Positions 30,813 through 56,949 of a DNA stretch of 64,000 bases are shown here, one piece after another; position 1 is the first letter of the stretch; the number at the start of each line of letters is the position of its first letter. This stretch comes from an uncultured Eubacteriales bacterium (GTDB lineage: Bacteria > Bacillota > Clostridia > Christensenellales > DTU072). The stretch lies in assembly GCA_949292905.1 (NCBI GenBank), contig CASFAV010000010.1:69920-133919 (forward strand), written 5' to 3'. Below the pieces are notes generated by a model. It was not told the DNA's origin, did not search any database, and was given only the letters and a program-made list of their open reading frames with translations. Both the position numbers and the translations under genes were made by a program.

Positions 30813-31790
30813 TTACAGTGTAATCGGATTTGGTTTTACAGATACTACTCCTGTTAGTGTTAAAACTAGCATCACTAACGACAAGGCAATTAAACTAATT
30901 CCCACTATTACGAAAATATGAGGCAACAGCCTTTCCCTGTTTGAATAAGATTTAATACCGTTTTTAGTGTTGTATCTATATTCACAATCAAACATATTTG
31001 CAGGCAAAATTTTTTCAATTGCGTTAATAACCGCAAATTTACCGGCATTATTCATTTCGTATGCACGCAAGCACGCTTTCCAATTCAATGCAAGGCTAGT
31101 AAAGACCAGCCCCGCCAATAGCATAATAACAAATGTTGCCGTGAGATTACCAAAAGCGAATGCAGCCCCTATAAAAGCTAATAAGGCCGCACAAATCGAT
31201 GTATATAGATTACTTATGTTTTGTCTTCTTTCCATTAGTTTTTCTGATGTATCCACCATAATTTGGTATTCGCTTATTAACAATTGATAATATTCGAATT
31301 CATTTATATCTTTTTGCAAATCTATATTAATTAAAGACTTTTCTACCGTCCACTGAGATTCTTCTAATAAAATATCGGTAATTTCGTTTGTATCGCATAC
31401 CCTGTATCTGCTTAAGTTTAATAACTCTCCCGAATAATCTAAACCGAATATTTCTTGTGCTATAGAATTAGATTGGCACTTGGCTTGCGGCAATTCTTCA
31501 TCTAACCTTATTATAAATGTTTTTTTATTAAACTTATTGGCAACGCCCAATTCCCATTTCACATTTTTAAGCCTATTTGCAATTAACTTCTTATTTAAAT
31601 CGCAAAAATAACATACCAAATTGCATTTTTTTAATTTGTCTACGGCTGTTTTATGCCAAAATTGATTTTCATTAAAAGGAGAAAACATAAAAAAATGTAA
31701 TGCGCCTTCTTTATCTTTGGATTTGATATCTTTTAAAACAGCATCTACCTTGGTTTTATCTTCAAAACTATAAATTACATAAATATCCAT
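30813..31790 (-). CDS. TIR-like (ThsB/DUF1863-type) N-terminal domain fused to a three-TM C-terminal module (325 aa)
   Basis: Strikingly AT-rich single gene between GC-rich neighbours. N-terminus MDIYVIYSFED ... NLVCYFCD ... VKWELGVANKFNKKTFIIRL. C-terminal part SEKLMERRQN followed by three hydrophobic segments. Confidence 0.6.
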   Translation of the reverse strand: MDIYVIYSFEDKTKVDAVLKDIKSKDKEGALHFFMFSPFNENQFWHKTAVDKLKKCNLVCYFCDLNKKLIANRLKNVKWELGVANKFNKKTFIIRLDEELPQAKCQSNSIAQEIFGLDYSGELLNLSRYRVCDTNEITDILLEESQWTVEKSLINIDLQKDINEFEYYQLLISEYQIMVDTSEKLMERRQNISNLYTSICAALLAFIGAAFAFGNLTATFVIMLLAGLVFTSLALNWKACLRAYEMNNAGKFAVINAIEKILPANMFDCEYRYNTKNGIKSYSNRERLLPHIFVIVGISLIALSLVMLVLTLTGVVSVKPNPITL

Positions 31791-40785: not shown

Positions 40786-40988
40786 CAGCTCGTCAGGTTT
40801 GCGCCGTAGAACTGCGCAAACTTGCGCACCCCGCTTGCTATCGCAAGAAACGTGCGCTATCCCTCCGCTTCCGCCAATTCAAAAAGAGCCTGTAACTGGC
40901 TCTTTTTGAATTGGCGGCGAGTTATCGCCTTTGTACGAACTTTGAAAGTCAGATAAAGGAGCAGCCTCTTTGGACTGCTTTTCTGTTT
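40786..40988. repeat. Structured repeat, copy C (left part + 20-bp-stem hairpin + right part)
   Basis: Perfect hairpin CCGCCAATTCAAAAAGAGCC-TGTAACT-GGCTCTTTTTGAATTGGCGG (40871-40917) is inserted between the parts that are contiguous in copy A. Overlaps the recombinase 3' end. Confidence 0.8.
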
Positions 40989-42435
40989 CCTTTACCGATT
41001 CGATTGAGTTGTTGTGTTTTTTGAGCGGATCGGAGAAGTAGTAGTTGATGATAATTTTATCGTTGTACAGAATAATGTCGCGGATAAGATATTTCACGAG
41101 AGCTTTTCTTACGCCTATATCCTGTACGTCGCCGCATATCGCCTTGTTCAGGAATTGAATGACTTTTGCGGGAGTGAGTTCTGCGAAGGTGCGTTGCTTT
41201 TCCTGTTCTATATCGAAGTCAAGCTGGGATATCTGGGTTTCGAGTTCTTTCAGGCGCTCTTTGGTTTGTTCGGTGATGATGCCTTGTTCTATGGCGGCAA
41301 TCAGGTTGCGCGACGCTTTCAGAGCGGCTGTTCGTTTTGTTTCAAGCGATTTGATATTGGCGTTGTTTCTTGACTTCTCGTTTATGCGTTTGCATAACAC
41401 CTCTGCTAAGGTTGTCAACGAGCCGTTGTCCGAAAGAAGTTGCCACGTCGTATTGATGACGATATCTTCGAGTTCTTTCTTGCAAGCGGTTTTCAACGTA
41501 CACGGTTTTTTGTCCCTTGAATGTGTCAGGCAAGTATAGTAATAATGCTTTGCGCCGGTTTTGCTTGTTCCGCTTATTCCGACCATCAGACGCTTGCAAT
41601 CTCCGCAGACCAGTTTCCCGGAAAGGATAAAATCAAAGATTTCTTTCTTCCTGCCGGGAGCGTGTTTATTGCTGTCGTGAATGTCTTGTACTTTCTGCCA
41701 TACAACGTCATCAACGATTTTCGGATAGATATTGTCATAAACGGTATCACCGTGTTTTATCTTGCCGTTGTATTTGGTATTCTGGAGCATCTTGTAGATT
41801 GCTTTTTCGGTGAGGTATTTTCCTCTCTTGGTGCGGATTCCTCGCTTGCGCATTTCCTCTGCGATATAAGCTGCCGTGTAGTTCTGTGCATACATTCCGA
41901 AGATTTCCTGTACGATTGCTCCTTCTATGGGATTGACGACGTTTTTCTTGTCTACGACGTCATATCCGAATAAGACCGGTCCGCCTGTATAATTGCCTTT
42001 CAGATAACTTTCTCTCAAGCCTCGCAAGACTTTCTGGGAAAGTTCCGCCGAATAGTATTGGTTCATACCTTCGAGCAGCGATTCAAGGATTATACCTTCG
42101 GGAGAGTCCGGAATGTTCTCCATAGCGGATACAAGTTTCACTCCGTTTTCTTTCAATGTGTGCTTATGGATAGTCATTTCGTACTTGTCCCGCGAAAAGC
42201 GGTCAAGTTTATAAACGATGACGTATTCCCATTGCCGTTTGCTGCTTGCTTTGATCATGCGCTGAAAATCGGGACGCATATCGTTCGTGCCGGTCATTGC
42301 ACGGTCAACGTATGTATCGACGACGAGAAGTTGGTTATTCTTTGCATAGTTCTGACAGACGCGGAGCTGTCCTTCGATGGACTGTTCTGTTTGCGTGTCA
42401 CTGGAATAACGTGCGTAAATCACTGCTTTTTTCAT
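40879..42435 (-). CDS. Large serine recombinase (518 aa)
   Basis: N-terminal resolvase domain MKKAVIYARYSSDTQ (catalytic Ser), recombinase domain, Cys-rich zinc ribbon CGDCKRLM..YYYTC, and a coiled-coil. AAGGAGG RBS. Confidence 0.9.
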   Translation of the reverse strand: MKKAVIYARYSSDTQTEQSIEGQLRVCQNYAKNNQLLVVDTYVDRAMTGTNDMRPDFQRMIKASSKRQWEYVIVYKLDRFSRDKYEMTIHKHTLKENGVKLVSAMENIPDSPEGIILESLLEGMNQYYSAELSQKVLRGLRESYLKGNYTGGPVLFGYDVVDKKNVVNPIEGAIVQEIFGMYAQNYTAAYIAEEMRKRGIRTKRGKYLTEKAIYKMLQNTKYNGKIKHGDTVYDNIYPKIVDDVVWQKVQDIHDSNKHAPGRKKEIFDFILSGKLVCGDCKRLMVGISGTSKTGAKHYYYTCLTHSRDKKPCTLKTACKKELEDIVINTTWQLLSDNGSLTTLAEVLCKRINEKSRNNANIKSLETKRTAALKASRNLIAAIEQGIITEQTKERLKELETQISQLDFDIEQEKQRTFAELTPAKVIQFLNKAICGDVQDIGVRKALVKYLIRDIILYNDKIIINYYFSDPLKKHNNSIESVKETEKQSKEAAPLSDFQSSYKGDNSPPIQKEPVTGSF

Positions 42436-42813: not shown

Positions 42814-42990
42814 ATGAGAAAAAGAAAACCGACAAATTATCAAACAGAGGTTAACGGTGAACCCTCAATCACCCAAATACCAAAGCATACTCTGGAATCT
42901 TTGGTATTTTCTCTTGAACTTGTCATATATGATATGCTGGAACAAGAAAAATCGGAAAATCAAAGAAAGGAAGAAGAAAAGAGGTCGTGA
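42814..42990 (+). CDS. Possible small protein (58 aa), charged C-terminus
   Basis: ATG ORF ending inside a good terminator hairpin (42978..43006), but no convincing RBS. Confidence 0.25.
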   Translation: MRKRKPTNYQTEVNGEPSITQIPKHTLESLVFSLELVIYDMLEQEKSENQRKEEEKRS

Positions 42991-43103
42991 TAATACGGCC
43001 TCTTTTGTTATGTTTATGAGTGTCATTAAAAACTGACTTTGAAATCTTTACTTTACTTAAAAATTATGATACAATAATTATGTATATTGTTTAGGAGCGT
43101 GTA

Positions 43104-44105
43104 ATGGGAAAAGAAGCCTTCTCTAAAATCAAACTTCTGAAGATATGGGAAATTCTCAAGCAGGACAGCGACGAGAATAATCCGTTGACTACAAATCAGA
43201 TTATAGATAGACTTGGCGCGAGCGGAATTGTTTGCGACCGCAGAACTTTGTATCAGGATATTGCCGCTCTTAACTCTTACGGATATGAAGTGGTCTGTAA
43301 AAAAGGTCAGCATAGCAACTGCTATTATGTGTTGGACAGAAACTTTGATGTGCCCGAACTTCGCATTCTTATAGACGCGGTGCAGGCAGCAAGTTTCATA
43401 TCCCCTAAAAAGACGGAAGAATTGACGGATAAAATAGCTGCTCTCGGCGGCAGTTACCGTGCGGACATTCTCAAAAAGAACATTGTAGAGTTTAATACGA
43501 CCAAGCACAGTAACGAACATATTTACTATACCGTAAATACGATAGAAGACGCTATTCTCGCCGAAAAGAAGATAGCCTTTCAGTATTTTGATCTGAACGA
43601 ACGTCACGAGCGTGTCTTTAGAAAGAACGGCGAGAAGTATAAGACAAATCCCGTTGCGATGGTCTTTTCAAATGACAATTATTATCTGATCTGCTATCAC
43701 GATAATCACGACAACATTACAACTTATCGTATAGACAGAATGTTGAATGCCGAGATGCTTTCCGATGAAATCAATACAAAAGTCAGACCGAAGGCGCTAA
43801 GTATATCGAAGCATCGCAAGCAAGCGTTTTCTATGTTTGGCGGAGAGATACAAACGGTGCGTTTTGAGGCGGATCGAGATATGTTGGACGTTATCTTCGA
43901 TAAGTTTGGCGAGGATATGAGCATAACTTCACTCGGTACGGATAGAATTTCGTTTTCTGCCGAAGTTCAGATAAGCCCGATGTTTTTCGGTTGGTGCTGT
44001 GCATTCGGTGAGAGGTTGAAAGTGGTTTCACCTGAAAAAACATTAGTTGCTTTAAAAGACTACATTCGAAATTTATCTCACGTCTATTGTATTCAGGGGG
44101 TATAG
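43104..44105 (+). CDS. WYL-domain transcriptional regulator (HTH-WYL-C-terminal extension; BrxR/CapW-like architecture)
   Basis: N-terminal wHTH (LTTNQIIDRLG..CDRRTLYQDI), WYL core YYLICYHDNHDNITTYRIDRM, and a C-terminal ~90-aa extension. AGGAG RBS. Confidence 0.85.
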   Translation: MGKEAFSKIKLLKIWEILKQDSDENNPLTTNQIIDRLGASGIVCDRRTLYQDIAALNSYGYEVVCKKGQHSNCYYVLDRNFDVPELRILIDAVQAASFISPKKTEELTDKIAALGGSYRADILKKNIVEFNTTKHSNEHIYYTVNTIEDAILAEKKIAFQYFDLNERHERVFRKNGEKYKTNPVAMVFSNDNYYLICYHDNHDNITTYRIDRMLNAEMLSDEINTKVRPKALSISKHRKQAFSMFGGEIQTVRFEADRDMLDVIFDKFGEDMSITSLGTDRISFSAEVQISPMFFGWCCAFGERLKVVSPEKTLVALKDYIRNLSHVYCIQGV

Positions 44106-44108
44106 GCT

Positions 44109-45884
44109 ATGTTACCAACAGATGTCATTGAAAATGATGCAGTTTATGAAGTAAACAAAGCTTTAAATAGCACAGGATACTTATCTCCCAATATACCCAC
44201 AAAAAATACTGAACCATCATGGGATGGTGAAGTTATATTATACTCTGATGCATTTGACCATAAAAAAGAGAATATAGTGGGTAAAATCAGAATTCAAGTT
44301 AAAGGCACTATGGACGAAGAGTTCCCCAATGGGAAGATAAGGTTTCCTGTCAGTGTAGTTGATCTTAATAATTATTATAAGACAGGCGGGGTAATTTATT
44401 TTGTCGTTCATGTCAATCAAGATCACTCAACTAAAATATACTATGAGACTTTTACGAAAGTGAAATTGACTAGCATATTGTCAAATTGTAAAGAGCAAAA
44501 AACAAAAACTATTGAATTTTTGCCATTACCCAATGATCCACTTACCGTTGCAAGGATTTTTTTTCAATTCAATATTGATAGTGAGAAACAATATAGCTAT
44601 ACCGAAGATAATATGCTTACATTTGAGAATAATAATGATAATATATCTAAAATATCATTTACTATATCCTGTTTAGGATGCAATGGTAATATTGGGAAAG
44701 CATTATTTTCAAATGAAGAAGTATATTTATATGGTTCTACTAATGAAAACGAAAATATTCAAATACCATTTAAAATGATTCCCAAAGATATTATAATCGG
44801 GAAAACGGTTAATTATAGAATTTATGCCAATGGGAAATTATTTTATGAATCTTATTCAATTCAAGAGAGCAAACATGAGAGAATTATATGTATCGGAAAT
44901 AGTCTTAAATTACATATAAATTCATTGGTCGAAAGTGTCAATGTAAAAATTAATCTGATTAATACCTTAAATGAAAGAATTCAGGACTTGGATTTTTTAA
45001 TTAATGTTGCGTACGGCAAAGGATTTACAATTAATAATTCAATGTTTGATATGGATATTAAGGACAAATTAGATTTACTCAAATTACGAAAACAATTAAA
45101 ATTTCTTAAAAATATTAAGAAATTATTTGGAATTTTACATATAAGTAATAATATCGATATTACAAAGCTAACTAAAGATGACGTAAATAAGTTAGGTGAA
45201 TTGGTAACAGCTTTTATTGACAAGAAAAGATTAACATTTATTCATGATATTCCTGAAATAATAAAGTATGTTATCGCGGATATGCAAATTTTAATTTTTG
45301 CAAAAAAATACGATAAAGTTGAAAACTCTTATAAGTTAAAAGACTTATTTAATTCTAATCTAGATTTTGCTTATTCTACACCAAAAGGGTTCGAACAAGT
45401 AACGGTATATTCTGTGTTAAAAGCTGATGATTATAATACTTTTTCCAATATTGATTATTGTAATATAGTCGACAAGTATAAAAAGTTTTATACCAAAAAC
45501 AAAAATTTGCCTCAATATGCGAACTATAATGTGTTAGAATTATTATCGGCTTATGATAAATCAAGTAATACAACCCAGTTAGAGGTAGCAGATAAATTAA
45601 CAGATTGGATTATTGAAGTGGATCCAGAAGGATATTCTGTATATTTATTAAACAAATTTCAAATAACCAAACGAAAAAGAAAACTTAATGACGAAGAAAA
45701 TGAAAAATTATATGAATTGATTGAGACTCCTAATAGCGCTGAAGAAATAAAATTGGGTGCTTACATATTACTGGATAATAGCATAATGGCAAAAAAATAT
45801 TTCGAGAAATTGAGTGAAAGTCAAAAAGAAGAATTTATAAAGTATCCAATATATAAACGCTTTGGAGAAAAGTTGTTGAAATAA
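44109..45884 (+). CDS. Unassigned 591-aa protein, N-terminal PD-(D/E)xK-like (DUF4365/Mrr-like) region
   Basis: Starts 3 nt after the WYL gene stop, with its own AGGGGG RBS. PSWDGEVILYSD...GKIRIQVKGT near the N-terminus. The rest is K/N/I-rich without a recognisable motif. Most AT-rich gene of the island. Confidence 0.55.
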   Translation: MLPTDVIENDAVYEVNKALNSTGYLSPNIPTKNTEPSWDGEVILYSDAFDHKKENIVGKIRIQVKGTMDEEFPNGKIRFPVSVVDLNNYYKTGGVIYFVVHVNQDHSTKIYYETFTKVKLTSILSNCKEQKTKTIEFLPLPNDPLTVARIFFQFNIDSEKQYSYTEDNMLTFENNNDNISKISFTISCLGCNGNIGKALFSNEEVYLYGSTNENENIQIPFKMIPKDIIIGKTVNYRIYANGKLFYESYSIQESKHERIICIGNSLKLHINSLVESVNVKINLINTLNERIQDLDFLINVAYGKGFTINNSMFDMDIKDKLDLLKLRKQLKFLKNIKKLFGILHISNNIDITKLTKDDVNKLGELVTAFIDKKRLTFIHDIPEIIKYVIADMQILIFAKKYDKVENSYKLKDLFNSNLDFAYSTPKGFEQVTVYSVLKADDYNTFSNIDYCNIVDKYKKFYTKNKNLPQYANYNVLELLSAYDKSSNTTQLEVADKLTDWIIEVDPEGYSVYLLNKFQITKRKRKLNDEENEKLYELIETPNSAEEIKLGAYILLDNSIMAKKYFEKLSESQKEEFIKYPIYKRFGEKLLK

Positions 45885-45906: not shown

Positions 45907-48900
45907 ATGAATAATTGTATTTATGGAAAATTTAATGAGGCTACTCGTGTGCAAATGCCGGCGATGATACATTTGTCCCGCCTTGGTTATCAATATTTCG
46001 GAAAAGTTACAGAGGATATGGCAGGAACCGTTTTCGATCCTGACACTAATATCTTGACTCAAATATTCGTCGAGCAATTCAAAAAGTTAAATCCTTTGCA
46101 TGAAGGCGAGGCTTTGCAAATGCTTAAAACCATACGCCAGGAGTTGGACAACGACGATTTAGGACGTAGCTTTTATAATCGGCTTAAAACGGTTTCGCCT
46201 GTCAAACTCATTGATTTTGAAAACATACAAAACAACGTATTTCATTACACGGCAGAGTTTACATGCAGACGGGATCAGGACGAGTTTCGCCCCGATATAA
46301 CGCTTTTCGTTAACGGACTTCCGCTTGTTTTCATTGAGGTTAAAAAACCCAATAATCACGGAGGAATTGTAGCGGAAAGCGAGAGAATGAATAGCCAGCG
46401 TTTTCCTAATAAAAAATTCCGCCGTTTTATTAACATAACGCAGTTGATGATTTTCTCCAACAATATGGAATATGACGCCGCAGGCGGAATCGTTCCTATT
46501 CAAGGGGCTTTTTATTGTACTGCTGCCAGAGAAAGCGCTCCGTTTAATTGCTTTAGAGAAGAAAATAAAAACAATCTTTCTGTCGCTCCGTATAATCAAA
46601 ATTACCCTTATAAAGATGTTGATACGGAACTTGAAAAGAAAATTCTTACGGATTTTAACTGTCAGGTCATCAGACATACGCCTGAATATCAGACAAACTT
46701 AAATATCAATAGTCCTACCAATCGTGTTATCACTTCGATGTGCTCACCCGAACGGCTGTTGTTTTTGTTGAAATACGGTATTGCGTATGTAAAAATGGAG
46801 CGCGAAGTTGACGGCAAAATTGAGTCCGTCGATCAAAAGCACATTATGCGTTATCAGCAATTTTTTGCGGCGCTTGCGGTCAGGGAAAAATTAAGACAAG
46901 GCGCAAAATCGGGAGTAATTTGGCATACGCAAGGTAGCGGAAAAACGGCGTTGTCGTACTATCTTACTTATGTACTTTCCGATTTCTATGCCGGGCAAAA
47001 CAAAGTTGCTAAATTCTACTTCATCGTTGACAGACTCGACTTGCTAGAGCAGGCTTCGCAAGAATTCGAAGCGCGCGGGTTAGAAGTTAAAACGGCAAAT
47101 ACGCGTGCAGAGTTAATGGCACAATTCCGTACAAATCAAGCGTTAGAAGGTTATTCGGGAAAGCCTGAAATTACGGTCGTTAATATTCAGCGGTTTGCGG
47201 AAGATACGGAAAAGGTGGATTTGCCCGATTACGCTACAAATTTGCAAAGGATCTTTATTATCGACGAGGCACACCGCGGCTATAATCCGAAGGGGTGTTT
47301 CCTTGCAAACCTTTTTGATGCCGATGTCAATTCGATAAAGATTGCTTTAACCGGAACTCCTCTTTTGAAAGAGGAGCGTGCTTCGTGGAGAGTTTTCGGC
47401 GAATACTTCCACACTTACTATTACGACAAATCCATACAGGACGGGTATACTCTCAAAATCATACGAGAAGATATAGAAACTTCTTATCGTGAGCGTTTAT
47501 CCCAAATATATGAACGACTGGAAACGCTTGTTCAAAAGAAAGATTTAAGAAAGTCGCAAATTATTGAACATGAAAGTTATGTGCACGATTTACTGTCGTA
47601 TATCATTAACGACCTAAAACGCTTCCGTAAAATTCAAGCCGATGACACCTTAGGCGGAATGATTATTTGCGAAACAAGCGAACAGGCACGCAAAATGTAT
47701 GCGTTATTCGATGAGGTTCAATTAGAGTTGAACCGTGACGATAAGTACAAGAGTAATTTCAAAGTCGGGCTGATATTGCACGATAGCGACGATAAAGAAA
47801 TAAGGAAACAGATCGTAAAAGATTTTAAAAAGAATATGACCGTTGACGTTCTTATCGTCTTCAATATGTTGTTGACCGGGTTTGACGCTCCGAGATTGAA
47901 AAGGCTGTATCTCGGTAGAAAACTTAAAGACCATAATTTGCTTCAGGCAATTACGCGAGTCAACCGGCCTTATAAACAAAACCGTTACGGATACATAATT
48001 GACTTTGCCGATATAAAGCAAAATTTTGAACAGACCAATGCGGCATATCTCCATGAGCTAAACAGGTTCAACGATCCCGATGAAACGGGGCTCGGTTGTC
48101 AGGAACTCGATACTTTCAGCCAGGTCATTGAGGATAAAGAAGCATTGATCGCACAGATGCAGGAAGTGCGTCAAATACTGTTTAATTACAGCACCGATAA
48201 TGTCGAAGAATTTAGTTCCGAAATATCCACTATTGAGGATAAAGAGGAATTGCTTCGTTTGAAAAAGGTGCTGACTTCCGCCCGCGACTGTTATAATATA
48301 GTGCGTACATTCGGAGACGACGAGCTGAAAGCGGCTTTCGCCAAACTACAAATCGAAAAACTGCCCGCCATGATTTCCGAAGTGCAGCATCACATTGACA
48401 ATATCAATCAAAAAGAAGCTTTTGCCGAAGAAGATGCGATCAAGCATGCTGTAAATGAGGCGATGCTTGACATTACCTTTAATTTCAGCAAAATAGGACA
48501 AGAAGAATTAAAATTGGCATCAGGCGGAGAAAAGTTCCATGAAAAATGGCAACGTACAATTCATGCGTTTATGGATAATATCGATCCTGATGATCCCGAA
48601 TATATAACTTTGCACGAAGCATTTGTTTTGCGGTTCAAAGAAAAAGGCTTTGTCCCTGAGACAATAGAAGAATTCAAAGAACATTCCCGTGCGCTGGATG
48701 AAATTCTTAAAAAGCTTTCGGAACTACAAAAACGCAATGCCGTTTTGCTCAAAAAGTATAACGGCGACGCCAAATTCGCCAGAGTGCATAAACGTATTCG
48801 GGAAGAAAACGCAATTCGTCGCACAAGAGGTCAAAAACCCATCATTTCCGATTTTGACGAAGCGGTCATGGAAGTTTTAAGTACGATTAAAACGGATGTG

Positions 48901-49092
48901 GATCAGAAAGTATATGACCGAAACGATATACTCAAAAAAGACGCCTATTTCGAGCAAACCGTCATGTCAGAAATTACGAAAGGTTTGAAAAAACTGGGGC
49001 TTGACAGCAGTCGTGACGACAGAATATTTATTCAGTCGCGCATTGCGGGACAGTATCTTAGCCAGTACAACGCCACATATCCGGCAGCATAA
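45907..49092 (+). CDS. hsdR: Type I restriction enzyme, R subunit
   Basis: HsdR N-terminal nuclease region (VQMPAMIHLSRLGY.., FIEVKKP), helicase motifs HTQGSGKT (motif I) and IIDEAHRG (DEAH), later QAITRVNR. Confidence 0.9.
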   Translation: MNNCIYGKFNEATRVQMPAMIHLSRLGYQYFGKVTEDMAGTVFDPDTNILTQIFVEQFKKLNPLHEGEALQMLKTIRQELDNDDLGRSFYNRLKTVSPVKLIDFENIQNNVFHYTAEFTCRRDQDEFRPDITLFVNGLPLVFIEVKKPNNHGGIVAESERMNSQRFPNKKFRRFINITQLMIFSNNMEYDAAGGIVPIQGAFYCTAARESAPFNCFREENKNNLSVAPYNQNYPYKDVDTELEKKILTDFNCQVIRHTPEYQTNLNINSPTNRVITSMCSPERLLFLLKYGIAYVKMEREVDGKIESVDQKHIMRYQQFFAALAVREKLRQGAKSGVIWHTQGSGKTALSYYLTYVLSDFYAGQNKVAKFYFIVDRLDLLEQASQEFEARGLEVKTANTRAELMAQFRTNQALEGYSGKPEITVVNIQRFAEDTEKVDLPDYATNLQRIFIIDEAHRGYNPKGCFLANLFDADVNSIKIALTGTPLLKEERASWRVFGEYFHTYYYDKSIQDGYTLKIIREDIETSYRERLSQIYERLETLVQKKDLRKSQIIEHESYVHDLLSYIINDLKRFRKIQADDTLGGMIICETSEQARKMYALFDEVQLELNRDDKYKSNFKVGLILHDSDDKEIRKQIVKDFKKNMTVDVLIVFNMLLTGFDAPRLKRLYLGRKLKDHNLLQAITRVNRPYKQNRYGYIIDFADIKQNFEQTNAAYLHELNRFNDPDETGLGCQELDTFSQVIEDKEALIAQMQEVRQILFNYSTDNVEEFSSEISTIEDKEELLRLKKVLTSARDCYNIVRTFGDDELKAAFAKLQIEKLPAMISEVQHHIDNINQKEAFAEEDAIKHAVNEAMLDITFNFSKIGQEELKLASGGEKFHEKWQRTIHAFMDNIDPDDPEYITLHEAFVLRFKEKGFVPETIEEFKEHSRALDEILKKLSELQKRNAVLLKKYNGDAKFARVHKRIREENAIRRTRGQKPIISDFDEAVMEVLSTIKTDVDQKVYDRNDILKKDAYFEQTVMSEITKGLKKLGLDSSRDDRIFIQSRIAGQYLSQYNATYPAA

Positions 49093-49106
49093 TTTAGGAG
49101 TAACAA

Positions 49107-50738
49107 ATGACGATTAAAGAAAAAACGATAGCATTGATCGATGCGCTGAAAGCTACTTGCCAGACATACGGCATGGGCAATGACGGTAACGAATACAAGA
49201 TAATAACGCAAGTGTTTTTGTATAAGTTTATCAACGATAAATTCGGTTATGAAGTCAAGCGAATCAGCCCGAAACTCGCAACCGCCGATAAATGGGAAGA
49301 AACATATTGCCAAATGTCTGAAGAAGAAAGACTCGAGCTTTTCGACGAGCTTGTCGATATTCCTCATCTTTGGCCCGAACACTTAATTTCCACTCTTTGG
49401 AATCAACAGTCAAAGGGCGATTTCGATCTGATATTCGATAGCACAATGACGGACATTGCCGATAAAAACATAGATATTTGGTCAACGCAAACGACGTTGA
49501 ATACCAAAATTCCGCTTTTCGAAAAGCTGACGATATTTGTTACGGATGAGGCCCAGCGCGCTCCTTTTGCAAGGGCTTTGGTAGATAAGCTTGTCAATTT
49601 CTCTTTTGAAGATGCTTTCGCCGAGCATTACGACTTTTTTGCCGCGATTTTCGAATATTTGATCAAAGACTACAATACAGCCGGCGGCGGTAAATACGCA
49701 GAATATTACACCCCGCACGCTATCGCAACGATTATGGCTCGCTTGTTAGTCGGAGAACAGCCCAATCTTCATAATATCGAATGTTACGACCCTTCTGCCG
49801 GAACTGGTACATTACTTATTGCTTTGGCTCATCAAATTGGTGAAGAAAAATGTACTATTTTTGCGCAAGATATATCTCAAAAAAGTAATAAGATGTTGAA
49901 ATTAAATTTAATACTCAATGGTTTAATTTCTTCTCTTGACCATGCAATACAGGGAGATACTTTAACAGATCCGTATCACAAAAGCAATGACAAACAGTAT
50001 TTGCGTCAATTTGATTTTATAGTATCAAATCCTCCTTTTAAGTTGGATTTCCCGGACACACATAAAAAAATAGCGGTGCAAACAGCTCGATTTTGGGCAG
50101 GTGTACCGAAGGTGCCCAAAAAAATTGACCCTAAAAAGCCTAAAATGGCGATTTACACTTGTTTCCTTCAGCATGTTATTAACTCATTAAAACCCGATAT
50201 AGGCAAAGGCGCAATCGTTGTACCTACAGGTTTCTTGACTGCAAAAAATGGTGTTGAATGCAAAATATTAGAAAAAATAGTGGATGAGCACATCGTTTAC
50301 GGTTGTATCAGTATGCCGTCAAATGTTTTTGCCACGACAGGCACCAACGTTTCCGTTTTGTTTTTTGACAATTCGCGCCCCACGGACAAAGTTGTTTTGA
50401 TAGACGCCTCGAAACTCGGTGAAGAGTACAAAGACGGGAACAACCAAAAACGACGTTTGCGTGACGATGAGATAGACAAAATTGTCAACACTTTCTTGAA
50501 CAAAGAAGTTGTTGATGACTTCTCCGTTGCCGTTACTTATGATGAAATAAAGGAGAAAAAATATTCTCTTGCCGCAGGACAATATTTTGACGTTAAAATC
50601 GAATATGTACCTCTCACGCAGGAAGAATTCATTGCCAAAATGAATAAATATACCGAGGATCTTGAAAAGCTTTTTGCCGAAGGCGACAAATTGCAAAAAG
50701 CGATTTTTGAGCAGCTTAAGAAGGTAAAATATGAGTGA
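49107..50738 (+). CDS. hsdM: Type I R-M N6-adenine DNA methyltransferase, M subunit
   Basis: EYYTP, DPSAGTGT (SAM motif I), and VSNPPF (motif IV). Confidence 0.9.
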   Translation: MTIKEKTIALIDALKATCQTYGMGNDGNEYKIITQVFLYKFINDKFGYEVKRISPKLATADKWEETYCQMSEEERLELFDELVDIPHLWPEHLISTLWNQQSKGDFDLIFDSTMTDIADKNIDIWSTQTTLNTKIPLFEKLTIFVTDEAQRAPFARALVDKLVNFSFEDAFAEHYDFFAAIFEYLIKDYNTAGGGKYAEYYTPHAIATIMARLLVGEQPNLHNIECYDPSAGTGTLLIALAHQIGEEKCTIFAQDISQKSNKMLKLNLILNGLISSLDHAIQGDTLTDPYHKSNDKQYLRQFDFIVSNPPFKLDFPDTHKKIAVQTARFWAGVPKVPKKIDPKKPKMAIYTCFLQHVINSLKPDIGKGAIVVPTGFLTAKNGVECKILEKIVDEHIVYGCISMPSNVFATTGTNVSVLFFDNSRPTDKVVLIDASKLGEEYKDGNNQKRRLRDDEIDKIVNTFLNKEVVDDFSVAVTYDEIKEKKYSLAAGQYFDVKIEYVPLTQEEFIAKMNKYTEDLEKLFAEGDKLQKAIFEQLKKVKYE

Positions 50739-51867
50739 CATTATTCTTAATCAAAGTAAATACAACTCGGATTGGGAACCTAAAAAATTATTTGAGTTAG
50801 GAACTTTTTCGAGAGGGATTTCTAAACACAGACCTCGAAACGATAATATTTTATTTGTTGGAGGAGGATACCCTTTTATCCAAACAGGTGATATTCGTAA
50901 GGCGAACTTATTCATTACACATCATGAAGAAGAATATGGAGAGTTAGGACTAAAACAAAGTAAGCTTTGGCCTAAAGGGACATTATGCATCACTATTGCC
51001 GCTAATATTGCAGAAACGGCAATTTTGGCATATCCAATGTGTTTTCCTGATAGCGTTGTTGGTTTTATTGCTAACACTGAATATTCGTCTGAATTATTTA
51101 TGTATTACATTTTTGAATATATAAAATATACAATTAAGACCGCTGCCTCAGGAAGTGCTCAGGATAATATAAATATTGAGTATCTTTCCTCTATAAAGTT
51201 TAGAATTCCGAATAAAACTTATCAAGATAGAATTGTTTCGGTTTTATCTTTTTTGGATAAAAAAATATCGCTAAATAATTTAATAAACGATAATTTAATG
51301 CAAATGGCATCAACTGTGTATATGCACTATTTTTTCAAGCGTACACAAAATGGAAAGCTGGGCAGTGTCTTAGTAGAACATAAAAAGTCAACTATTCAAG
51401 TAGGTGAAGCACAAGAGGCAAGTGGCAATGTGCCTTTTTTCACGAGCGGGGATTCGATTTTGAAATGGGATAACGCTCTTGTTGATGGGAGGTGTTGTTA
51501 TTTAAACACCGGAGGCAATGCCGATGTCAAATTCTATGTTGGCAAAGCAGCTTATTCAACTGATACATGGTGTATATCAGGAAAGGATCAGCTTTCAGAT
51601 TATCTTTTTCTCTTGTTGAATGCTATTAAGCCTGAAATAGACAAAAAATTCTTTCAAGGAACTGGATTAAAACATCTTCAAAAGCCTTTACTGAAAGATC
51701 GGCCAATATATATTCCAACAATAGACGAACTGAGTGCATTTAATGCGCAAATAATGCCTATGATGACGAAAATCTCAGAGAATACAATAGAAAATCAGCA
51801 GTTAATACAATTGCGTGATTGGCTGCTTCCTATGCTTATGAATGGTCAAGCAACTGTTGCGGATTAA
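50731..51867 (+). CDS. hsdS: Type I R-M specificity subunit
   Basis: Two target-recognition halves separated by a conserved helical spacer (..VSVLSFLDKKISLNNLINDNLMQMA.. and ..IENQQLIQLRDWLLPMLMNGQ). 8-nt overlap with hsdM. Confidence 0.85.
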   Translation: MSDIILNQSKYNSDWEPKKLFELGTFSRGISKHRPRNDNILFVGGGYPFIQTGDIRKANLFITHHEEEYGELGLKQSKLWPKGTLCITIAANIAETAILAYPMCFPDSVVGFIANTEYSSELFMYYIFEYIKYTIKTAASGSAQDNINIEYLSSIKFRIPNKTYQDRIVSVLSFLDKKISLNNLINDNLMQMASTVYMHYFFKRTQNGKLGSVLVEHKKSTIQVGEAQEASGNVPFFTSGDSILKWDNALVDGRCCYLNTGGNADVKFYVGKAAYSTDTWCISGKDQLSDYLFLLLNAIKPEIDKKFFQGTGLKHLQKPLLKDRPIYIPTIDELSAFNAQIMPMMTKISENTIENQQLIQLRDWLLPMLMNGQATVAD

Positions 51868-51941
51868 GGTAAGAATATTTATAATAAAAGCATCAGCAAA
51901 ACAATTTATTATATATAAGTGATTAAACTTGTGGAGTGGAA

Positions 51942-53075
51942 ATGGATAATTCTGGTATAATTTCTCAATATGGATTTGAATATCAAAAATTAGCATTTTT
52001 ATATTGTGCTATTCAAATAAATAACACAGATATTATTACATATGAAGGACAAGATGATGTAGACATTGAAGAAGAAAAAACACTTTGGAAATTTCAAACA
52101 CTTAAATCGCTATGCCAAGTAAAAAGTGGAGACGTAACACTCCCCATTTTTAAGAAAATAATATTAAATTGGCTTCTTAAAATGGAGCAAGCTGAACGTT
52201 TTATTTGCATATCAGAAAACATAGTTTTGTTACCTGATGAGTCTTTTATAGAAACTTTCTCTAAAGAAATTATTGAAAGTAACAAGAAAAAAGATGCTTT
52301 AATTAGCAGGGTAAAAGTTAAATATTCGACGCAAAAAAGTACTGATGATTTAAAAGCTGATATAGGAAGATTATTATCAAAAGCAGAGTTTTTGTGTCTG
52401 AATGTTGACACATTAGTAGAAGAATCAATAAAAAAATTTGCTGATGTGTATTGCGCTGATTCTAAATCCGAAGTGATATTCAGGGAACGTTATTTAATGC
52501 TGTATGATAATATTCATAAAAATATTACTCAATCTATATTAAGAAAGGAAAAATATGTTTTACAGTACAGAGATCTTGTTAGAGAGATCTATGCCACTTT
52601 GGAAGCGATAAGCGATTCAAAATATGAGAAATCCTTCACTGAATTCAAGAAGAGATCTTTTTCTACAATGGCAAAAATTTTACACTCTCAATCAGATGCA
52701 GTTAAGCAATTAAAACTTGTATTCCCTCAAGACGAAAAATCAGTCTTACTGGGCTTAACTGAGCAGATGTTTTATGAGGATTTAAGACAACATTTTATCA
52801 GTATAAATATGCAAACAGAAATTAGAGAACTAGAAAATTTGGCAAAGTATAATTATGATAGAACATTGCAAGAGTTTGTAGGATATGGTACTACTCGTAC
52901 TCCATTTGCAACATATCAGAACACTATTGATAAGCCTTTATCAAAACCTTTACCTCCAGAAAATTCGCCAAACTTTCCTTATTATAGGCATGGTTGTTAT
53001 ATACATTTAACAGATACAGATATAGATGAGAATTTGAAAATTAAATGGGGAGAGATAGAAGATGAAACAAATTAA
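51942..53075 (+). CDS. lmuA: Lamassu effector LmuA, Cap4/DUF4297-type nuclease N-terminal domain
   Basis: N-terminal GFEYQ motif, then YEGQDDVDIEEE...CQVKSG (D..E/Q-x-K nuclease layout). Start moved to the ATG 5 nt after GGAG. Confidence 0.7.
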   Translation: MDNSGIISQYGFEYQKLAFLYCAIQINNTDIITYEGQDDVDIEEEKTLWKFQTLKSLCQVKSGDVTLPIFKKIILNWLLKMEQAERFICISENIVLLPDESFIETFSKEIIESNKKKDALISRVKVKYSTQKSTDDLKADIGRLLSKAEFLCLNVDTLVEESIKKFADVYCADSKSEVIFRERYLMLYDNIHKNITQSILRKEKYVLQYRDLVREIYATLEAISDSKYEKSFTEFKKRSFSTMAKILHSQSDAVKQLKLVFPQDEKSVLLGLTEQMFYEDLRQHFISINMQTEIRELENLAKYNYDRTLQEFVGYGTTRTPFATYQNTIDKPLSKPLPPENSPNFPYYRHGCYIHLTDTDIDENLKIKWGEIEDETN

Positions 53076-53484
53076 TTATTTAGATTATGCGCAATACAAT
53101 GAAATAATTTGTCGGCTGATTTATGAGTTCAATATATCTTCCCAAATAAAAGTTATTTTTATTGCTTTTTCCATTAAAAATAACTACCATAATTTAAAAT
53201 CTACAAACCAAAAATATGGTGCATTGGAAATAATCCTAGAGGGAATAAAATTGGGACTTAGGCAAGGCGTTTCTGATTTTACAATTATTTTTGATTGTTT
53301 AGACCTCTTAAAAAAGGGGGGATTTATTTGCGTAAAAAACGGTGTAATAGAACAATTGAAGCCAGCACCTAAGTATAGTAAAGAGCTTGATAGTTTGAAT
53401 GCGCAAATAATACAGAGAGCAATTAATGAAACGGAAAAGCTCAGTGATGATTCAATAATAAGAGGAGTTATAGAATATGTTTAA
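53062..53484 (+). CDS. lmuC: Lamassu middle component LmuC-like (140 aa)
   Basis: Small protein overlapping both neighbours (14 nt and 8 nt). Assignment rests on position between lmuA and lmuB. Confidence 0.5.
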   Translation: MKQINYLDYAQYNEIICRLIYEFNISSQIKVIFIAFSIKNNYHNLKSTNQKYGALEIILEGIKLGLRQGVSDFTIIFDCLDLLKKGGFICVKNGVIEQLKPAPKYSKELDSLNAQIIQRAINETEKLSDDSIIRGVIEYV

Positions 53485-55201
53485 AATTGATTATTTAAAA
53501 GTAAATTATGAGGATAAAACCATAGAACCATCTGTTTATGAGTTTGGAGATTCTGTATATATTTTTGGTCAAAATAACGTAGGAAAAACCATAATGCTGC
53601 AGGCAATAGATTATGTTCTTGGCAAAAGTGGCTTTGTTTTAGAGGATAGAGATGGGCTTGAGAATATTATTTCTCTTGAACTAAAACTTGTTAACGATGG
53701 TCGCACTCTGTTTATATGCAGATCAAAATATAATGATTTTGGATATAAATATTCAGAAGGCGATGCTGCATATTTAACCGTTGATGCTAATATGTATAAG
53801 CAAGAAATAACTTCATTTATCTTGGGAAAAAATTCCAATTATTTTGAAAATTTTAAAATCTATTTAGATGAAGACTTGTCGTTTCGTGCATTTGCTTTTA
53901 TTAACTTTTTGGATGAAAAGGGATTAGGAAATTTAACAAATATTTTCCCTCGCATTTCAACTTATTATAACCAAAAAAGAGCACGTAAACTTATGACATT
54001 TGTTTTTAATTATAAGAATGTCACCAAGCTTATTGAATTAATGAAAGAACAAACTGAACTAATTAAAACGTTGCAAACTCTTAGCGAGCAAAAGGCGACG
54101 TATAATTATTCATTAGCAGTAATTAGAAGAGAATTTAATGAGTTGCAGATACCTTTCAAAACAGAGGATTCGTTGCGAATCTTAAAAGAAGCTTTCGATT
54201 CATACAATAAGGATTTTTACAGAGATACAATCAAAAAAAGACATGCATCGAATGATTTAGGGGTGTTATTAAGGATTTCTTGTTCTTTATCAGAAGAGTT
54301 AAAATTTCAAGAAAATCTGTGGCAACAAACCAAGCTTTTGGACAGCCGAAACGTAAAATCTGATAAATTATTGACCGCTTTTAGAGAGTTGGCCTTGTTG
54401 GATGAGGATTATTCTGTGTATGTAGATGATATTGAAGCTTTAATTAAAAAACAGAAACTATCTCATGATATACTTTCTATAAAAGATTTTGAAAAAACTA
54501 TACGCGAAATTAAAGCCAAAAAAGCAGATATTGATCGGCAAATTGCTGCATGTCAAAAAGGATTAAACAAAGATTCATACGAAAACATACTTAAAGCAAT
54601 TGGAAGAATTGAACAGGCTTTTACCAATATCTCAAGTATACCCGATTTAAATGAGATTATGGTAATAGAAGAGCGTTTAAAACAAATTGAGGGAGAAATA
54701 AATAAGCTACGCAAAGATTTTGATAATACGCTAAAAACAGAATTTGACGAAACCATGCTAATGTTTTACAAAGAACTCGCTAAAGTTAAATTTGTATCAG
54801 AAGATCTTAATCAGAAGAATTTTAAGATTTTGTTTGATCCAATAAAGATTTCTGTTTGTGGCGAAAGATTAAAACCTAATTCGGAAAATATAATCGTGTC
54901 ATATATGCCGGGAAGTATGGCGCGTGAAACGACATGGCAAATTATTGCTTATCTAACAATGTTTAAACTTTTCAAAGAAAAATTTACTGAATTGCCATTA
55001 ATGCCTGTACTCTTTATTGACGGATTGGACCAGCCTTATGATGAGGAAAAAAATAGCTATCCTAATGTTTATAGTTTTATTCGAAATAAAGCGTTAGAAA
55101 TAGGAGTACAGTTATTTGTTGTTTCAACTCGTGATGGAAAGCCTATTGGAATTAAAGATCAATTGCATATTACAGGTTTTAATAAAACCTATAAGAGATA
55201 G
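53477..55201 (+). CDS. lmuB: Lamassu SMC/ABC-like ATPase LmuB (DUF3732-type)
   Basis: N-terminal Walker A GQNNVGKT followed by AIDYVLGKS, a long central coiled-coil-like region, and C-terminal Walker-B-like VLFIDGLDQPYD. Confidence 0.75.
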   Translation: MFKIDYLKVNYEDKTIEPSVYEFGDSVYIFGQNNVGKTIMLQAIDYVLGKSGFVLEDRDGLENIISLELKLVNDGRTLFICRSKYNDFGYKYSEGDAAYLTVDANMYKQEITSFILGKNSNYFENFKIYLDEDLSFRAFAFINFLDEKGLGNLTNIFPRISTYYNQKRARKLMTFVFNYKNVTKLIELMKEQTELIKTLQTLSEQKATYNYSLAVIRREFNELQIPFKTEDSLRILKEAFDSYNKDFYRDTIKKRHASNDLGVLLRISCSLSEELKFQENLWQQTKLLDSRNVKSDKLLTAFRELALLDEDYSVYVDDIEALIKKQKLSHDILSIKDFEKTIREIKAKKADIDRQIAACQKGLNKDSYENILKAIGRIEQAFTNISSIPDLNEIMVIEERLKQIEGEINKLRKDFDNTLKTEFDETMLMFYKELAKVKFVSEDLNQKNFKILFDPIKISVCGERLKPNSENIIVSYMPGSMARETTWQIIAYLTMFKLFKEKFTELPLMPVLFIDGLDQPYDEEKNSYPNVYSFIRNKALEIGVQLFVVSTRDGKPIGIKDQLHITGFNKTYKR

Positions 55202-55331
55202 AATAAAAAGATAAATATATGCTCAATTAATACATAATGGAAAAAAGGTAAGCGTCAAAAATCATGTGCTTATTATAGTTGAGTCCATATAATTATATTT
55301 TTCACTGTCTGTAAACTTGCACAGTCAGCCC

Positions 55332-55361
55332 TTGACTTCGGGGGCTGGCTTTTGCTATAAT
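55332..55361 (+). promoter_or_regulatory. Candidate sigma-70 promoter of the LexA-like repressor gene
   Basis: TTGACT, 18 nt spacer, TATAAT. The -35 is embedded in the terminator-like hairpin that follows lmuB. Confidence 0.5.
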
Positions 55362-55372
55362 ACGAATATGAT

Positions 55373-55393
55373 AACGAAACGCAATGTTTTGTT
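55373..55393 (+). promoter_or_regulatory. Candidate operator just downstream of the -10
   Basis: Imperfect palindrome AACGAAAC-GCAAT-GTTTTGTT (7 of 8 positions complementary). Confidence 0.3.
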
Positions 55394-55413
55394 TATGTGC
55401 CAGAGGTGATAAA

Positions 55414-56010
55414 ATGAGAGTGTTGAACTCGGATACGCTTGAAAAAGTGGCTCAGTATAATATTAATTATCAAAGGGAACACGGGAGAACACCGAGTTTC
55501 AGAGAAATCATGCACGCTCTTAACCTTGGCTCTCTTGCAACCGTTCAAAGATATGTGAGAGCGCTGCAAAAATCAGACCGTTTGGAGCTGACAAGCGCAG
55601 GGAATATTTCCCCCCTACCGCAACTTGACGGTGGAGCGAGGACGGTCGTACCGCTGATTGGTGAAATTGCTTGTGGCGAACCCATTTTTGCCGTTGAGAA
55701 TATCGAGGAAAGCTATGCTTTTCCGAAAGCGTTGTTCGGTGACGGGGAACTGTTTATGCTTCGGGCAAAAGGCAACAGCATGATAGATGCAGGGATAAAT
55801 AAAGGCGATCTGGTGGTATTACGCAGACAAACTACTGCCGATGACGGCGAAATAGTTGCTGCCCTGATAGACGGTGAAGCAACTCTTAAAAGGTTGTTCC
55901 ATCGTGACGGTAAAATTGTTCTCCACCCTGAAAATAAGCGGATGAAAGATATTGTTCTTGATAGTTGCGACGTTCAGGGTGTGTTGGTAAGCTGTATAAA
56001 AATGTATTGA
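55414..56010 (+). CDS. LexA-like S24-peptidase repressor (198 aa)
   Basis: N-terminal wHTH. VPLIGEIACGEP aligns with LexA LPLVGRVAAGEP. Catalytic Ser in KGNSM and Lys in ATLKRL. Start moved to the ATG after AGAGGTG. Confidence 0.85.
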   Translation: MRVLNSDTLEKVAQYNINYQREHGRTPSFREIMHALNLGSLATVQRYVRALQKSDRLELTSAGNISPLPQLDGGARTVVPLIGEIACGEPIFAVENIEESYAFPKALFGDGELFMLRAKGNSMIDAGINKGDLVVLRRQTTADDGEIVAALIDGEATLKRLFHRDGKIVLHPENKRMKDIVLDSCDVQGVLVSCIKMY

Positions 56011-56607: not shown

Positions 56608-56949
56608 GTGAATGTCAACGAGAGGCGCAAAGCGATATTGGAAGTTCTTTGCGCTCGCCGGCACGAAACAAGAGAGAATCTTGCGTTCGAGTTCGGTGTA
56701 AGCAAACGCACAATTGAATATGACGTGCTGAGCCTCTCGTTGGAGTACCCGGTTTACACTTCGCAAGGAAACGGAGGCGGTATACACGTCGTGGACGGTT
56801 TCAAGCTCGATATGAAGTATCTGTCGGATAAGCAATGTGCTTTGCTTGAAAAATTGGCGGCAAATCTTTCGGGCGAAGACGCCGAGGTCATGGCTTCCAT
56901 CATCAAAACATTCGCTTTGCCGAAAAAACAGGAGGAAAAACCGATATGA
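56608..56949 (+). CDS. HTH-domain transcriptional regulator (113 aa)
   Basis: GTG start 7 nt after AAAGGAGGTG. RRKAILEVL....ETRENLAFEFGVSKRTIEYDV is a winged-helix/HTH_11-like N-terminus. Confidence 0.65.
   Translation: MNVNERRKAILEVLCARRHETRENLAFEFGVSKRTIEYDVLSLSLEYPVYTSQGNGGGIHVVDGFKLDMKYLSDKQCALLEKLAANLSGEDAEVMASIIKTFALPKKQEEKPI

Follow-up and report, generated by a model that had tools for sequence, protein, structure and literature searches.

The locus described here raises the question of what is encoded by a gene for a 591-aa protein that lies between a transcriptional regulator and a type I restriction-modification system in the DNA of an uncultured Eubacteriales bacterium (assembly GCA_949292905.1, contig CASFAV010000010.1, positions 69,920–133,919 of the forward strand; this 64,000-nt stretch is the window referred to below, and its own numbering is used). 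The gene (44109..45884, plus strand) begins with an ATG 3 nt after the stop codon (TAG, 44103–44105) of a gene for a 333-aa WYL-domain protein (43104..44105, plus strand), and hsdR starts at 45907, 22 nt past its own stop; both open reading frames (ORFs) and both gaps, as given in an original prediction, are present in the sequence. That prediction had proposed a single-effector defence gene under WYL control or, failing that, a sensor or accessory of the adjacent type I system. With a little more confidence than doubt, we read 44109..45884 as an autonomous sensor-nuclease gene for anti-phage or anti-plasmid defence from a large uncatalogued family, on the combined evidence of sequence, predicted structure, genomic context and analogy with known systems.

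The 591-aa protein and its family

At 27.3% the gene has the lowest GC content of its island, compared with 41.5% for the WYL gene, 40.9% for hsdR and 46.9% for the whole window (three Lamassu-like genes farther downstream have 29–30%), and 27% GC between flanking genes of 41% points to a foreign origin. It had been called both the most AT-rich and the most K/N/I-rich gene of the island, of which the former holds and the latter goes a little too far, since its K+N+I content (30.6%) comes second to that of a 140-aa ORF (32.1%). With a ratio of nonsynonymous to synonymous substitutions (dN/dS) of 0.14–0.17 against the two closest orthologues, at a dS near saturation, and with full-length homologues, it is a real gene under purifying selection over its whole length.

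Pfam family PF14280 (DUF4365) matches residues 10–138 (E = 5.9e-6; 26.8 bits against a cut-off of 24.3 bits), and several homologues pass the cut-off too. Residues 31–72 (TKNTEPSWDGEVILYSDAFDHKKENIVGKIRIQVKGTMDEEF) contain the motif PSWDGEVILY...GKIRIQVKGT, whose D-x-E stretch and QVK strand had been associated with a DUF4365/Mrr-type fold, an assignment borne out by the Pfam match, by the residues invariant among homologues and by structural comparison. Invariant in an alignment of 43 homologues are E8, W38, D39, G40, Q63, K65 and D85; position 41 varies, and so the second Asp of the published family motif DxGxD...QxK is not conserved. The predicted catalytic residues of what is, by its motifs, a PD-(D/E)xK nuclease of the Mrr/DUF4365 type are E8 in helix 1, D39 in strand 2 and Q63 and K65 of the QxK motif in strand 3. 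When a model of the full-length protein was compared with the PDB using Foldseek, the best match was the DREN-APAZ chain of activated XauSPARDA (9qcc_Q; E = 3.9e-4, probability 1.0), and among viral structures (BFVD) it was the DUF4365 protein Q6NE05 of Leptospira phage LE1 (E = 2.4e-3, TM-score 0.49 on the target). DUF4365/DREN is a non-specific DNase in SPARDA (PMC10810196; 10.1101/2025.04.08.647717), where the isolated domain is an inactive monomer and the active form is a tetramer built by filament assembly. Moreover, DUF4365 is the toxic part of EAT16 (PMC11297309) and a component of Divona, a defence gene of integrons (10.1101/2024.07.02.601686).

The remaining ~430 residues, in which no nameable motif had been noticed, indeed gave no match to any Pfam, NCBIfam or PADLOC model and no named fold. 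A word-indexed search retrieved 160 homologues, virtually all of 580–625 aa and aligned end to end at 26–99% identity, and full-length homologues are found at about 23–99% identity to the 591-aa protein. An exhaustive hidden Markov model (HMM) search with a profile of the C-terminal region (residues 165–591) reached 2,466 clusters, formed at 50% identity, with E ≤ 1e-3; with E ≤ 1e-30 there were still 1,248. Among the 150 best matches this region begins almost always near residue 165 of a protein of ~590–610 aa, from which we take the architecture to be fixed; the shorter matches are probably truncated gene calls, and the idea that the same sensor is fused to other effectors was rejected on these grounds. 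One 793-aa homologue (P0184) carries a DUF1016_N fragment before its DUF4365 domain, probably because a truncated YhcG-type gene next to it was called together with it as one gene, which echoes the frequent adjacency of YhcG genes. Members of the family are known in Bacillota, Bacteroidota, Verrucomicrobiota, Planctomycetota and other phyla, and from plasmids and prophages.

An AlphaFold2 model made with the family alignment (pLDDT 92 and pTM 0.74 at full length; pLDDT 90 for residues 165–591 modelled alone) depicts the protein as a DREN-type nuclease followed by beta-rich, alpha/beta and helical-repeat (TPR-like) domains, the last ~150 residues resembling TPR-type helical repeats in weak matches only. 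Foldseek comparison of the residues 165–591 model with the PDB gave no match better than E = 0.03, and that one was unrelated; neither a P-loop NTPase family nor a Walker motif was detected in the 591-aa protein. The protein had been described as unassigned, which holds for its function and not for its membership: PHROGs lists the family as phrog_9827 (matched over the full length at E = 9e-71), annotated 'unknown function', and RefSeq as 'DUF4365 domain-containing protein', the sole name in any source. In PADLOC-DB v2.0.0, which includes 145 'embedded' PDC candidates, the window protein matched no family at E ≤ 0.01 and a homologue (L031:6195-8036) none at E ≤ 0.001, in line with the earlier view that it fits no named defence system. 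In the literature on DUF4365, DUF4391 and embedded genes, we found no paper describing this ~600-aa family.

Genomic settings of the family

When genomes were scanned, one for each species, with a profile made from a 15-sequence alignment, 61 loci came up, 51 of them with a full-length gene, in Clostridia, Bacilli, Bacteroidota, Akkermansia, Thermoguttaceae, Elusimicrobiaceae and Desulfovibrionaceae. Neighbouring ORFs were labelled by iterated HMMs seeded from Pfam- and PADLOC-verified examples. In raw counts, restriction or BREX genes lie at most four genes away in 25 of the 51 full-length loci, and in 22 (43%) they are its immediate same-strand neighbours, with overlaps in many cases. At 16 loci the gene sits in an operon with the order SNF2 helicase, DUF4391, the gene itself, type III Mod, a variable slot and type III Res; the other restriction neighbours are type I, MmeI or BREX genes, the BREX cases (L037 and L046) having been assigned from gene sizes and pooled PglZ and BrxL matches. 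The 16 operon-embedded proteins share 27–87% identity with one another (median 39%) and are interleaved, in an identity tree, with those from type I, MmeI, BREX and other contexts. Because they are so diverged and interleaved, their association with the SNF2-DUF4391-Mod-Res operon appears to be recurrent rather than the legacy of one inherited event. That the gene is an integral subunit of this type III-like operon was rejected for the same interleaving and since other guests share the slots.

The SNF2 (~1080 aa; PADLOC 'HKD+Snf2' C3a139)–DUF4391 (~200 aa)–type III Mod–Res arrangement is itself a recurrent operon, located at about 6–17 kb in each locus (L015, L016, L019, L022, L026, L031, L033, L035, L038, L040, L051 and L053). 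It has guest slots after DUF4391 and between Mod and Res, occupied by the DUF4365 gene, by YhcG/DUF1016 (PDC-S02) or by unnamed ORFs, and our search of the DUF4391 literature found no title concerning it. Fic-domain genes, labelled by iterated HMM, occur near family members or at the head of SNF2-DUF4391 operons at five loci (L007, 6970..9809; L016, 5142..6077; L017; L031; L061), and in L007 and L017 no other gene of at least 60 aa lies closer upstream than the Fic gene.

The remaining same-strand neighbours include, among the families listed, RhuM, GmrSD, AAA_15/21, Schlafen, HD, BrxL/PglZ, AbiJ, SIR2 and relaxases. Other members stand alone on Clostridium botulinum phage-plasmids, on a conjugative-type Brevibacillus plasmid and on other plasmids, and the gene also occurs in a region resembling an integrative and conjugative element and on 10 IMG/VR contigs. 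The DUF4365 gene is, in short, a mobile 'guest' in restriction-modification and BREX operons, defence islands, prophages, plasmids and conjugative elements. Abutment on restriction or BREX genes, insertion into SNF2-DUF4391-Mod-Res operons and, in the window, a place between WYL and hsdR are what the 'guilt-by-embedding' criterion of Payne et al. looks for; in their 2024 study, nine genes found inside Hma, BREX, DISARM or type I operons were tested, and seven proved to be defences. PD-(D/E)xK nucleases are, moreover, the commonest auxiliary effectors in BREX loci. The original prediction had suggested asking whether homologues keep company with WYL genes and defence islands: they are found with defence islands and with restriction or BREX operons, and next to WYL genes only in the window's own element lineage.

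The integrative element in the window

The closest relatives of the window's gene (56–99% identical) all lie in integrative elements of the same type, which run from a serine recombinase (minus strand) through the WYL and DUF4365 genes, variable cargo and an S24/LexA-like repressor to conserved element genes; the recombinase holds this position in the related elements L001–L004, L077 and L080. By DNA comparison, the variable segment of the window extends from ~45.94–46.06 kb to ~55.25–55.30 kb, homology with the sister elements resuming at 55245–55301, and its cargo is swapped between elements that are otherwise 75–96% identical. This cargo consists of hsdRMS and a Lamassu-like trio in the window, of hsdRMS with GmrSD_N and HEPN in L080, of hsdRMS with an ABC-3C system (CTD6, weak Mrr_cat) in L081 and of Ymh with a 206-aa ORF in L077; in L001–L004 a deletion scar alone remains, a 50-codon stub with 86% identity to the beginning of hsdR. 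The DUF4365 gene is intact in all these elements, including L001–L004 after the deletion of hsdRMS, and is more AT-rich than the WYL gene throughout. Whatever cargo follows, it comes first among the effectors of this defence hotspot, which is carried by a serine-recombinase integrative element. By comparison, hsdRMS (absent or replaced in L001–L004 and L077, present in L080 and L081) is cargo in the same transcription-direction block and not its fixed partner. The proposal that the 591-aa protein is specifically an accessory of the adjacent type I system is weakened by these findings, its relatives lying in type III-like, MmeI, BREX or type I operons or alone. The features of the locus are collected in the table.

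Features of the defence locus and its mobile element (coordinates in the window)
Feature	Coordinates	Strand	Evidence or remarks
Large serine recombinase, integrase of the mobile element carrying the locus	40879..42435	-	Pfam Resolvase, Recombinase, Zn_ribbon_recom; PHROG 95 integrase, E = 5e-106
Terminator-like hairpin upstream of the WYL promoter	42977..43006	+	13-bp stem, then T-run; kept in L001/L002
Two overlapping sigma-70-like promoter candidates	43039..43075	+	29–65 nt 5' of the WYL start codon; consensus matches only
Transcription regulator of probable HTH-WYL-WCX type, BrxR/CapW class	43104..44105	+	Pfam, PADLOC, L035 homologue
Predicted N-terminal DUF4365/DREN-type PD-(D/E)xK nuclease domain, residues 1–164	44109..44600	+	PF14280, invariant residues, Foldseek
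C-terminal region, residues 165–591: beta-rich, alpha/beta and helical-repeat (TPR-like) domains; proposed sensor/regulatory part	44601..45884	+	Predicted model
Type I restriction-modification genes hsdR, hsdM, hsdS	45907..51867	+	Pfam and PADLOC matches
Lamassu/ABC-3C-like cassette of three overlapping genes (379, 140 and 574 aa), variable hotspot cargo	51936..55201	+	PADLOC LmuB, 6e-11, for the 574-aa protein
Strongest terminator-like hairpin within 42.3–56.2 kb, at the end of the defence block	55323..55350	+	12-bp stem, 7 GC pairs
LexA/CI-like S24 peptidase repressor, right border of the variable defence hotspot	55384..56010	+	Pfam Peptidase_S24, 1e-32; PHROG repressor and UmuD-like families; 87% conserved in L001

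The regulator had been read as a helix-turn-helix (HTH) plus WYL protein, and this reading stands: Pfam WYL matches at E = 2e-12 and PADLOC WYL models at 7e-24, with a sub-threshold match to HTH_11 (E = 7e-5; 23.1 bits, under the 25-bit cut-off). The window protein has no direct WCX match; it is 47% identical end to end, including the WCX region, to the WYL protein of L035, which does match WCX (2e-6), the orthologue in L077 giving a weak match (0.011). By architecture and position, the gene thus fits the BrxR/CapW class; its dN/dS is 0.05–0.08. By sequence, no WYL structure in the PDB was reached from this protein. The coupling to WYL is not general to the family and proves to be confined to the window's element lineage, where alone WYL is directly upstream; elsewhere a WYL gene lies within 8 kb at 2 of the 61 loci (L026 and L035) and is adjacent in neither. 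In L035 it heads the operon WYL-YhcG-SNF2-DUF4391-[DUF4365 gene]-Mod-YhcG-Res. A 113-aa ORF 3' of the S24 repressor (56608..56949, plus strand) matches the N-terminal (HTH) part of phrog_13105 (2.5e-6), which is the PHROG of the WYL regulator too, a sign that the element may carry a further HTH paralogue in truncated form.

Upstream of the regulator, the hairpin at 42977..43006 is a putative terminator that would shield the WYL promoter from upstream transcription. The promoter candidates read TTGAAA-17-AATTAT and TTTACT-17-TACAAT, the latter with an extended −10 TG, and the block 43028–43058 is identical in L001 and L002. Neither promoter alignment nor inverted-repeat scans revealed a conserved WYL operator; there are short AT-rich inverted repeats at 43062–43090, which are not conserved in the promoters of relatives. 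A terminator scan found no convincing hairpin between the WYL gene and the 591-aa gene or at the 45884/45907 junction. The 591-aa gene probably shares a transcript with its BrxR/CapW-like regulator, one that may also take in the hsdRMS and Lamassu-like cargo farther on, and because the strongest terminator-like hairpin of the scanned stretch comes only at 55323, the WYL promoter may read through into the cargo. That hairpin overlaps the promoter of the S24 repressor, where a promoter-like site (55332–55361) fits 11 of 12 positions.

Several observations concern the cargo and the rest of the window. Across hsdR and hsdM, the window shares ~96% identity with L080 up to a break at the start of hsdS (window position 50735), and identity between the two hsdS genes (50731..51867 in the window, 9885..11141 in L080) returns only for ~100 nt at their end, which points to swapped specificity (target-recognition) domains between near-identical elements. 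The 379-aa putative effector of the Lamassu-like cassette matched nothing in Pfam, NCBIfam or PADLOC, and its N-terminus resembles, by eye, a PD-(D/E)xK/Cap4-type motif (GFEYQK...DDVDIEE...CQVKSG). Far from the defence block, an isolated low-GC gene (30813..31790, minus strand; the 31–32 kb bin has 33% GC compared with ~50% in its flanks) encodes a 325-aa protein whose C-terminal half is recognised by PF24838, the 8xMP octameric membrane-protein domain (1.6e-17), and whose N-terminal ~170 aa are without assignment; it has the look of a membrane effector gained by horizontal transfer.

Explanations and known systems

If the 591-aa protein is an autonomous sensor-nuclease, the C-terminal region would keep the nuclease inactive until it bound an infection cue, the nuclease domains would then be brought together, as in SPARDA, and invader and/or host DNA would be degraded. 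The WYL protein, for its part, would repress the promoter at about 43040–43075 and keep expression low until a signal arrives. Autonomy is argued by purifying selection on a gene that stays whole even in elements that have lost hsdRMS, and by its occurrence on plasmids and phage-plasmids that offer no restriction-system partner. Taken together with its fold and its company, the protein, a known effector fold joined to a putative sensor without known relatives, is a credible and widespread single-polypeptide defence candidate.

Several points weigh against this reading. The defence role is one that we infer, and the sensor role of the C-terminal region and the oligomerisation trigger are drawn by analogy. 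The DUF4365 score exceeds its cut-off by a small margin, the Foldseek TM-scores against SPARDA are low (0.19/0.27 over 494 alignment columns), which we ascribe to the matching of only one domain, and HMM searches of PDB sequences with full-length and N-terminal profiles gave chance matches only and did not reach SPARDA. Effector-swapped relatives of the C-terminal region, which would have supported a modular sensor, were absent from the top 150 matches. The adjacency figures are raw counts, not an enrichment over arbitrary defence genes. Finally, the lack of a family model in PADLOC-DB v2 fits novelty, yet equally leaves the defence role a prediction.

The gene's place beside methylation-based systems would also suit a modification-dependent (type IV) restriction endonuclease, in which the C-terminal domains read modified phage DNA and the Mrr-like N-terminus cuts, so complementing its neighbours as Mrr or McrBC do beside hsd in E. 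coli and BrxU or GmrSD in BREX. The Mrr/DUF4365-type fold with its D...QxK motif agrees with this, as do the GmrSD-type enzymes in comparable embedded positions of the same kinds of loci and the precedent of MspJI- and PvuRts1I-class enzymes, which like the 591-aa protein are single polypeptides without an NTPase. What tells against it is the region that would have to do the reading: in residues 165–591 none of the reader folds SRA, EVE/PUA, YTH or winged helix was detected with Foldseek, Pfam, NCBIfam and PADLOC give no DNA-binding family, and the sole recognisable part is TPR-like, a kind of fold whose usual ligands are proteins or peptides. The enzyme would, besides, have to be tolerated by a low-GC host that has type I methylation of its own, which is possible. 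We regard a type IV enzyme as unlikely, though it deserves to be kept in mind. The same TPR-like C-terminus, being suited to protein ligands, lends itself to a guard or back-up effector of the PrrC or PARIS kind, coupled to methylation-based systems, quiet as long as the adjacent restriction or BREX complex functions and firing its nuclease on a phage anti-restriction protein (an Ocr/ArdA-type DNA mimic or similar). Precedents are PrrC, which is found almost only inside type I systems, and the Ocr-triggered PARIS and Gabija; the species-level loci that abut restriction or BREX genes, co-oriented and often overlapping, involve four classes of them, and operons that have diverged repeatedly share the position between DUF4391 and Mod. 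These partners, however, belong to unrelated enzyme classes, so that they show no obvious shared surface for interaction; on plasmids and phage-plasmids, and in L001–L004 after the hsd deletion, the gene is kept where no restriction system accompanies it; and the presence of other guests (YhcG/DUF1016 and unnamed ORFs) in the slots of the same operons points to an insertion hotspot rather than a functional partnership. A guard of this kind seems to us rather improbable.

Least probable by far is a non-immune function of a selfish or mobile element, whether as a free-standing homing-type endonuclease that spreads its own gene into operons or as a nuclease for element maintenance or exclusion. 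Such a function would accord with the patchy, horizontal scatter over phyla and mobile elements, with a GC content foreign to the surroundings, with insertion at gene junctions within operons and with the resemblance of the DREN tetramer to the homing endonuclease I-Ssp6803I. The flanks, on the other hand, are overwhelmingly defence genes and not conserved housekeeping targets, the whole length is under purifying selection and, to our knowledge, a protein of 590–610 aa with a large conserved non-nuclease region is unlike the free-standing homing endonucleases. A bolder version of immunity, which we offer as speculation with a small chance of being right, would make the family a widespread 'second-layer' immune nuclease recruited into type I, type III-like, MmeI and BREX systems, its structurally novel C-terminal module of 430 residues sensing phage counter-defence (anti-restriction proteins, for instance, or a breakdown of the host system) and triggering DREN-type oligomerisation and DNA destruction; if true, the sensor would have a new fold, and restriction systems would be guarded by a general mechanism.

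We continue to favour the autonomous sensor-nuclease. Were the 591-aa protein active, the anti-phage repertoire would gain a family of more than 2,000 clusters (at 50% identity) and a SPARDA-type DREN nuclease that does without an Argonaute and is paired with a sensor region lacking any relative of solved fold. The rule of discovery by embedding would also extend to type III-like SNF2-DUF4391-Mod-Res operons. The compact prophage-type hotspot, with its recombinase, WYL and nuclease genes, swappable cargo and repressor, could be mined for further systems and is a natural setting for studying WYL control of stacked defences.

Among known systems, SPARDA is the closest in structure, sharing the N-terminal DUF4365/DREN PD-(D/E)xK domain. 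The similarity is confined to the nuclease, because the model of residues 165–591 retrieves neither SPARDA nor Argonaute, and a relationship to APAZ or Argonaute was rejected on this basis. In the window, the neighbours are WYL upstream and hsdR downstream, with no adjacent short Argonaute (MID-PIWI); across the family, no Argonaute-sized co-oriented partner recurs and no Piwi appears among the first 25 of the 124 neighbour families, no Argonaute-specific search having been run. Divona, a single-gene cassette of Vibrio chromosomal integrons, is likewise a stand-alone N-terminal DUF4365 nuclease fused to a second domain, set apart by its description, in which that partner is crr6 (PF08847), a domain without a match in the 591-aa protein. 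With Mrr and other type IV enzymes the protein has in common the Mrr/DUF4365-class catalytic fold, D...QxK and a location beside methylation-based systems; in contrast to Mrr, GmrSD and MspJI, it lacks Pfam Mrr_cat, Mrr_N, DUF262 and DUF1524 and any modified-DNA reader fold, and its non-catalytic region is much larger and unrelated. Avs-type (STAND) proteins follow a similar logic, with an N-terminal Mrr-like nuclease effector and a C-terminal helical-repeat sensor in one polypeptide; the 591-aa protein differs from them in having no detected NTPase and about a third of their size. In behaviour, the family resembles the HEC/PDC embedded genes (Payne et al., 2024), PrrC and BrxU, all of them single genes that lie, co-oriented, within Hma, BREX, DISARM or type I operons; it matches no PADLOC-DB v2 model, the PDC set included, and its commonest host operon, the type III-like SNF2-DUF4391-Mod-Res, lay outside the survey of Payne et al. 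The WYL gene, lastly, shares with BrxR and CapW both the HTH-WYL architecture, with a C-terminal part that is probably of WCX type, and the place at the head of a defence block, and its relative in L035 likewise heads a restriction operon.

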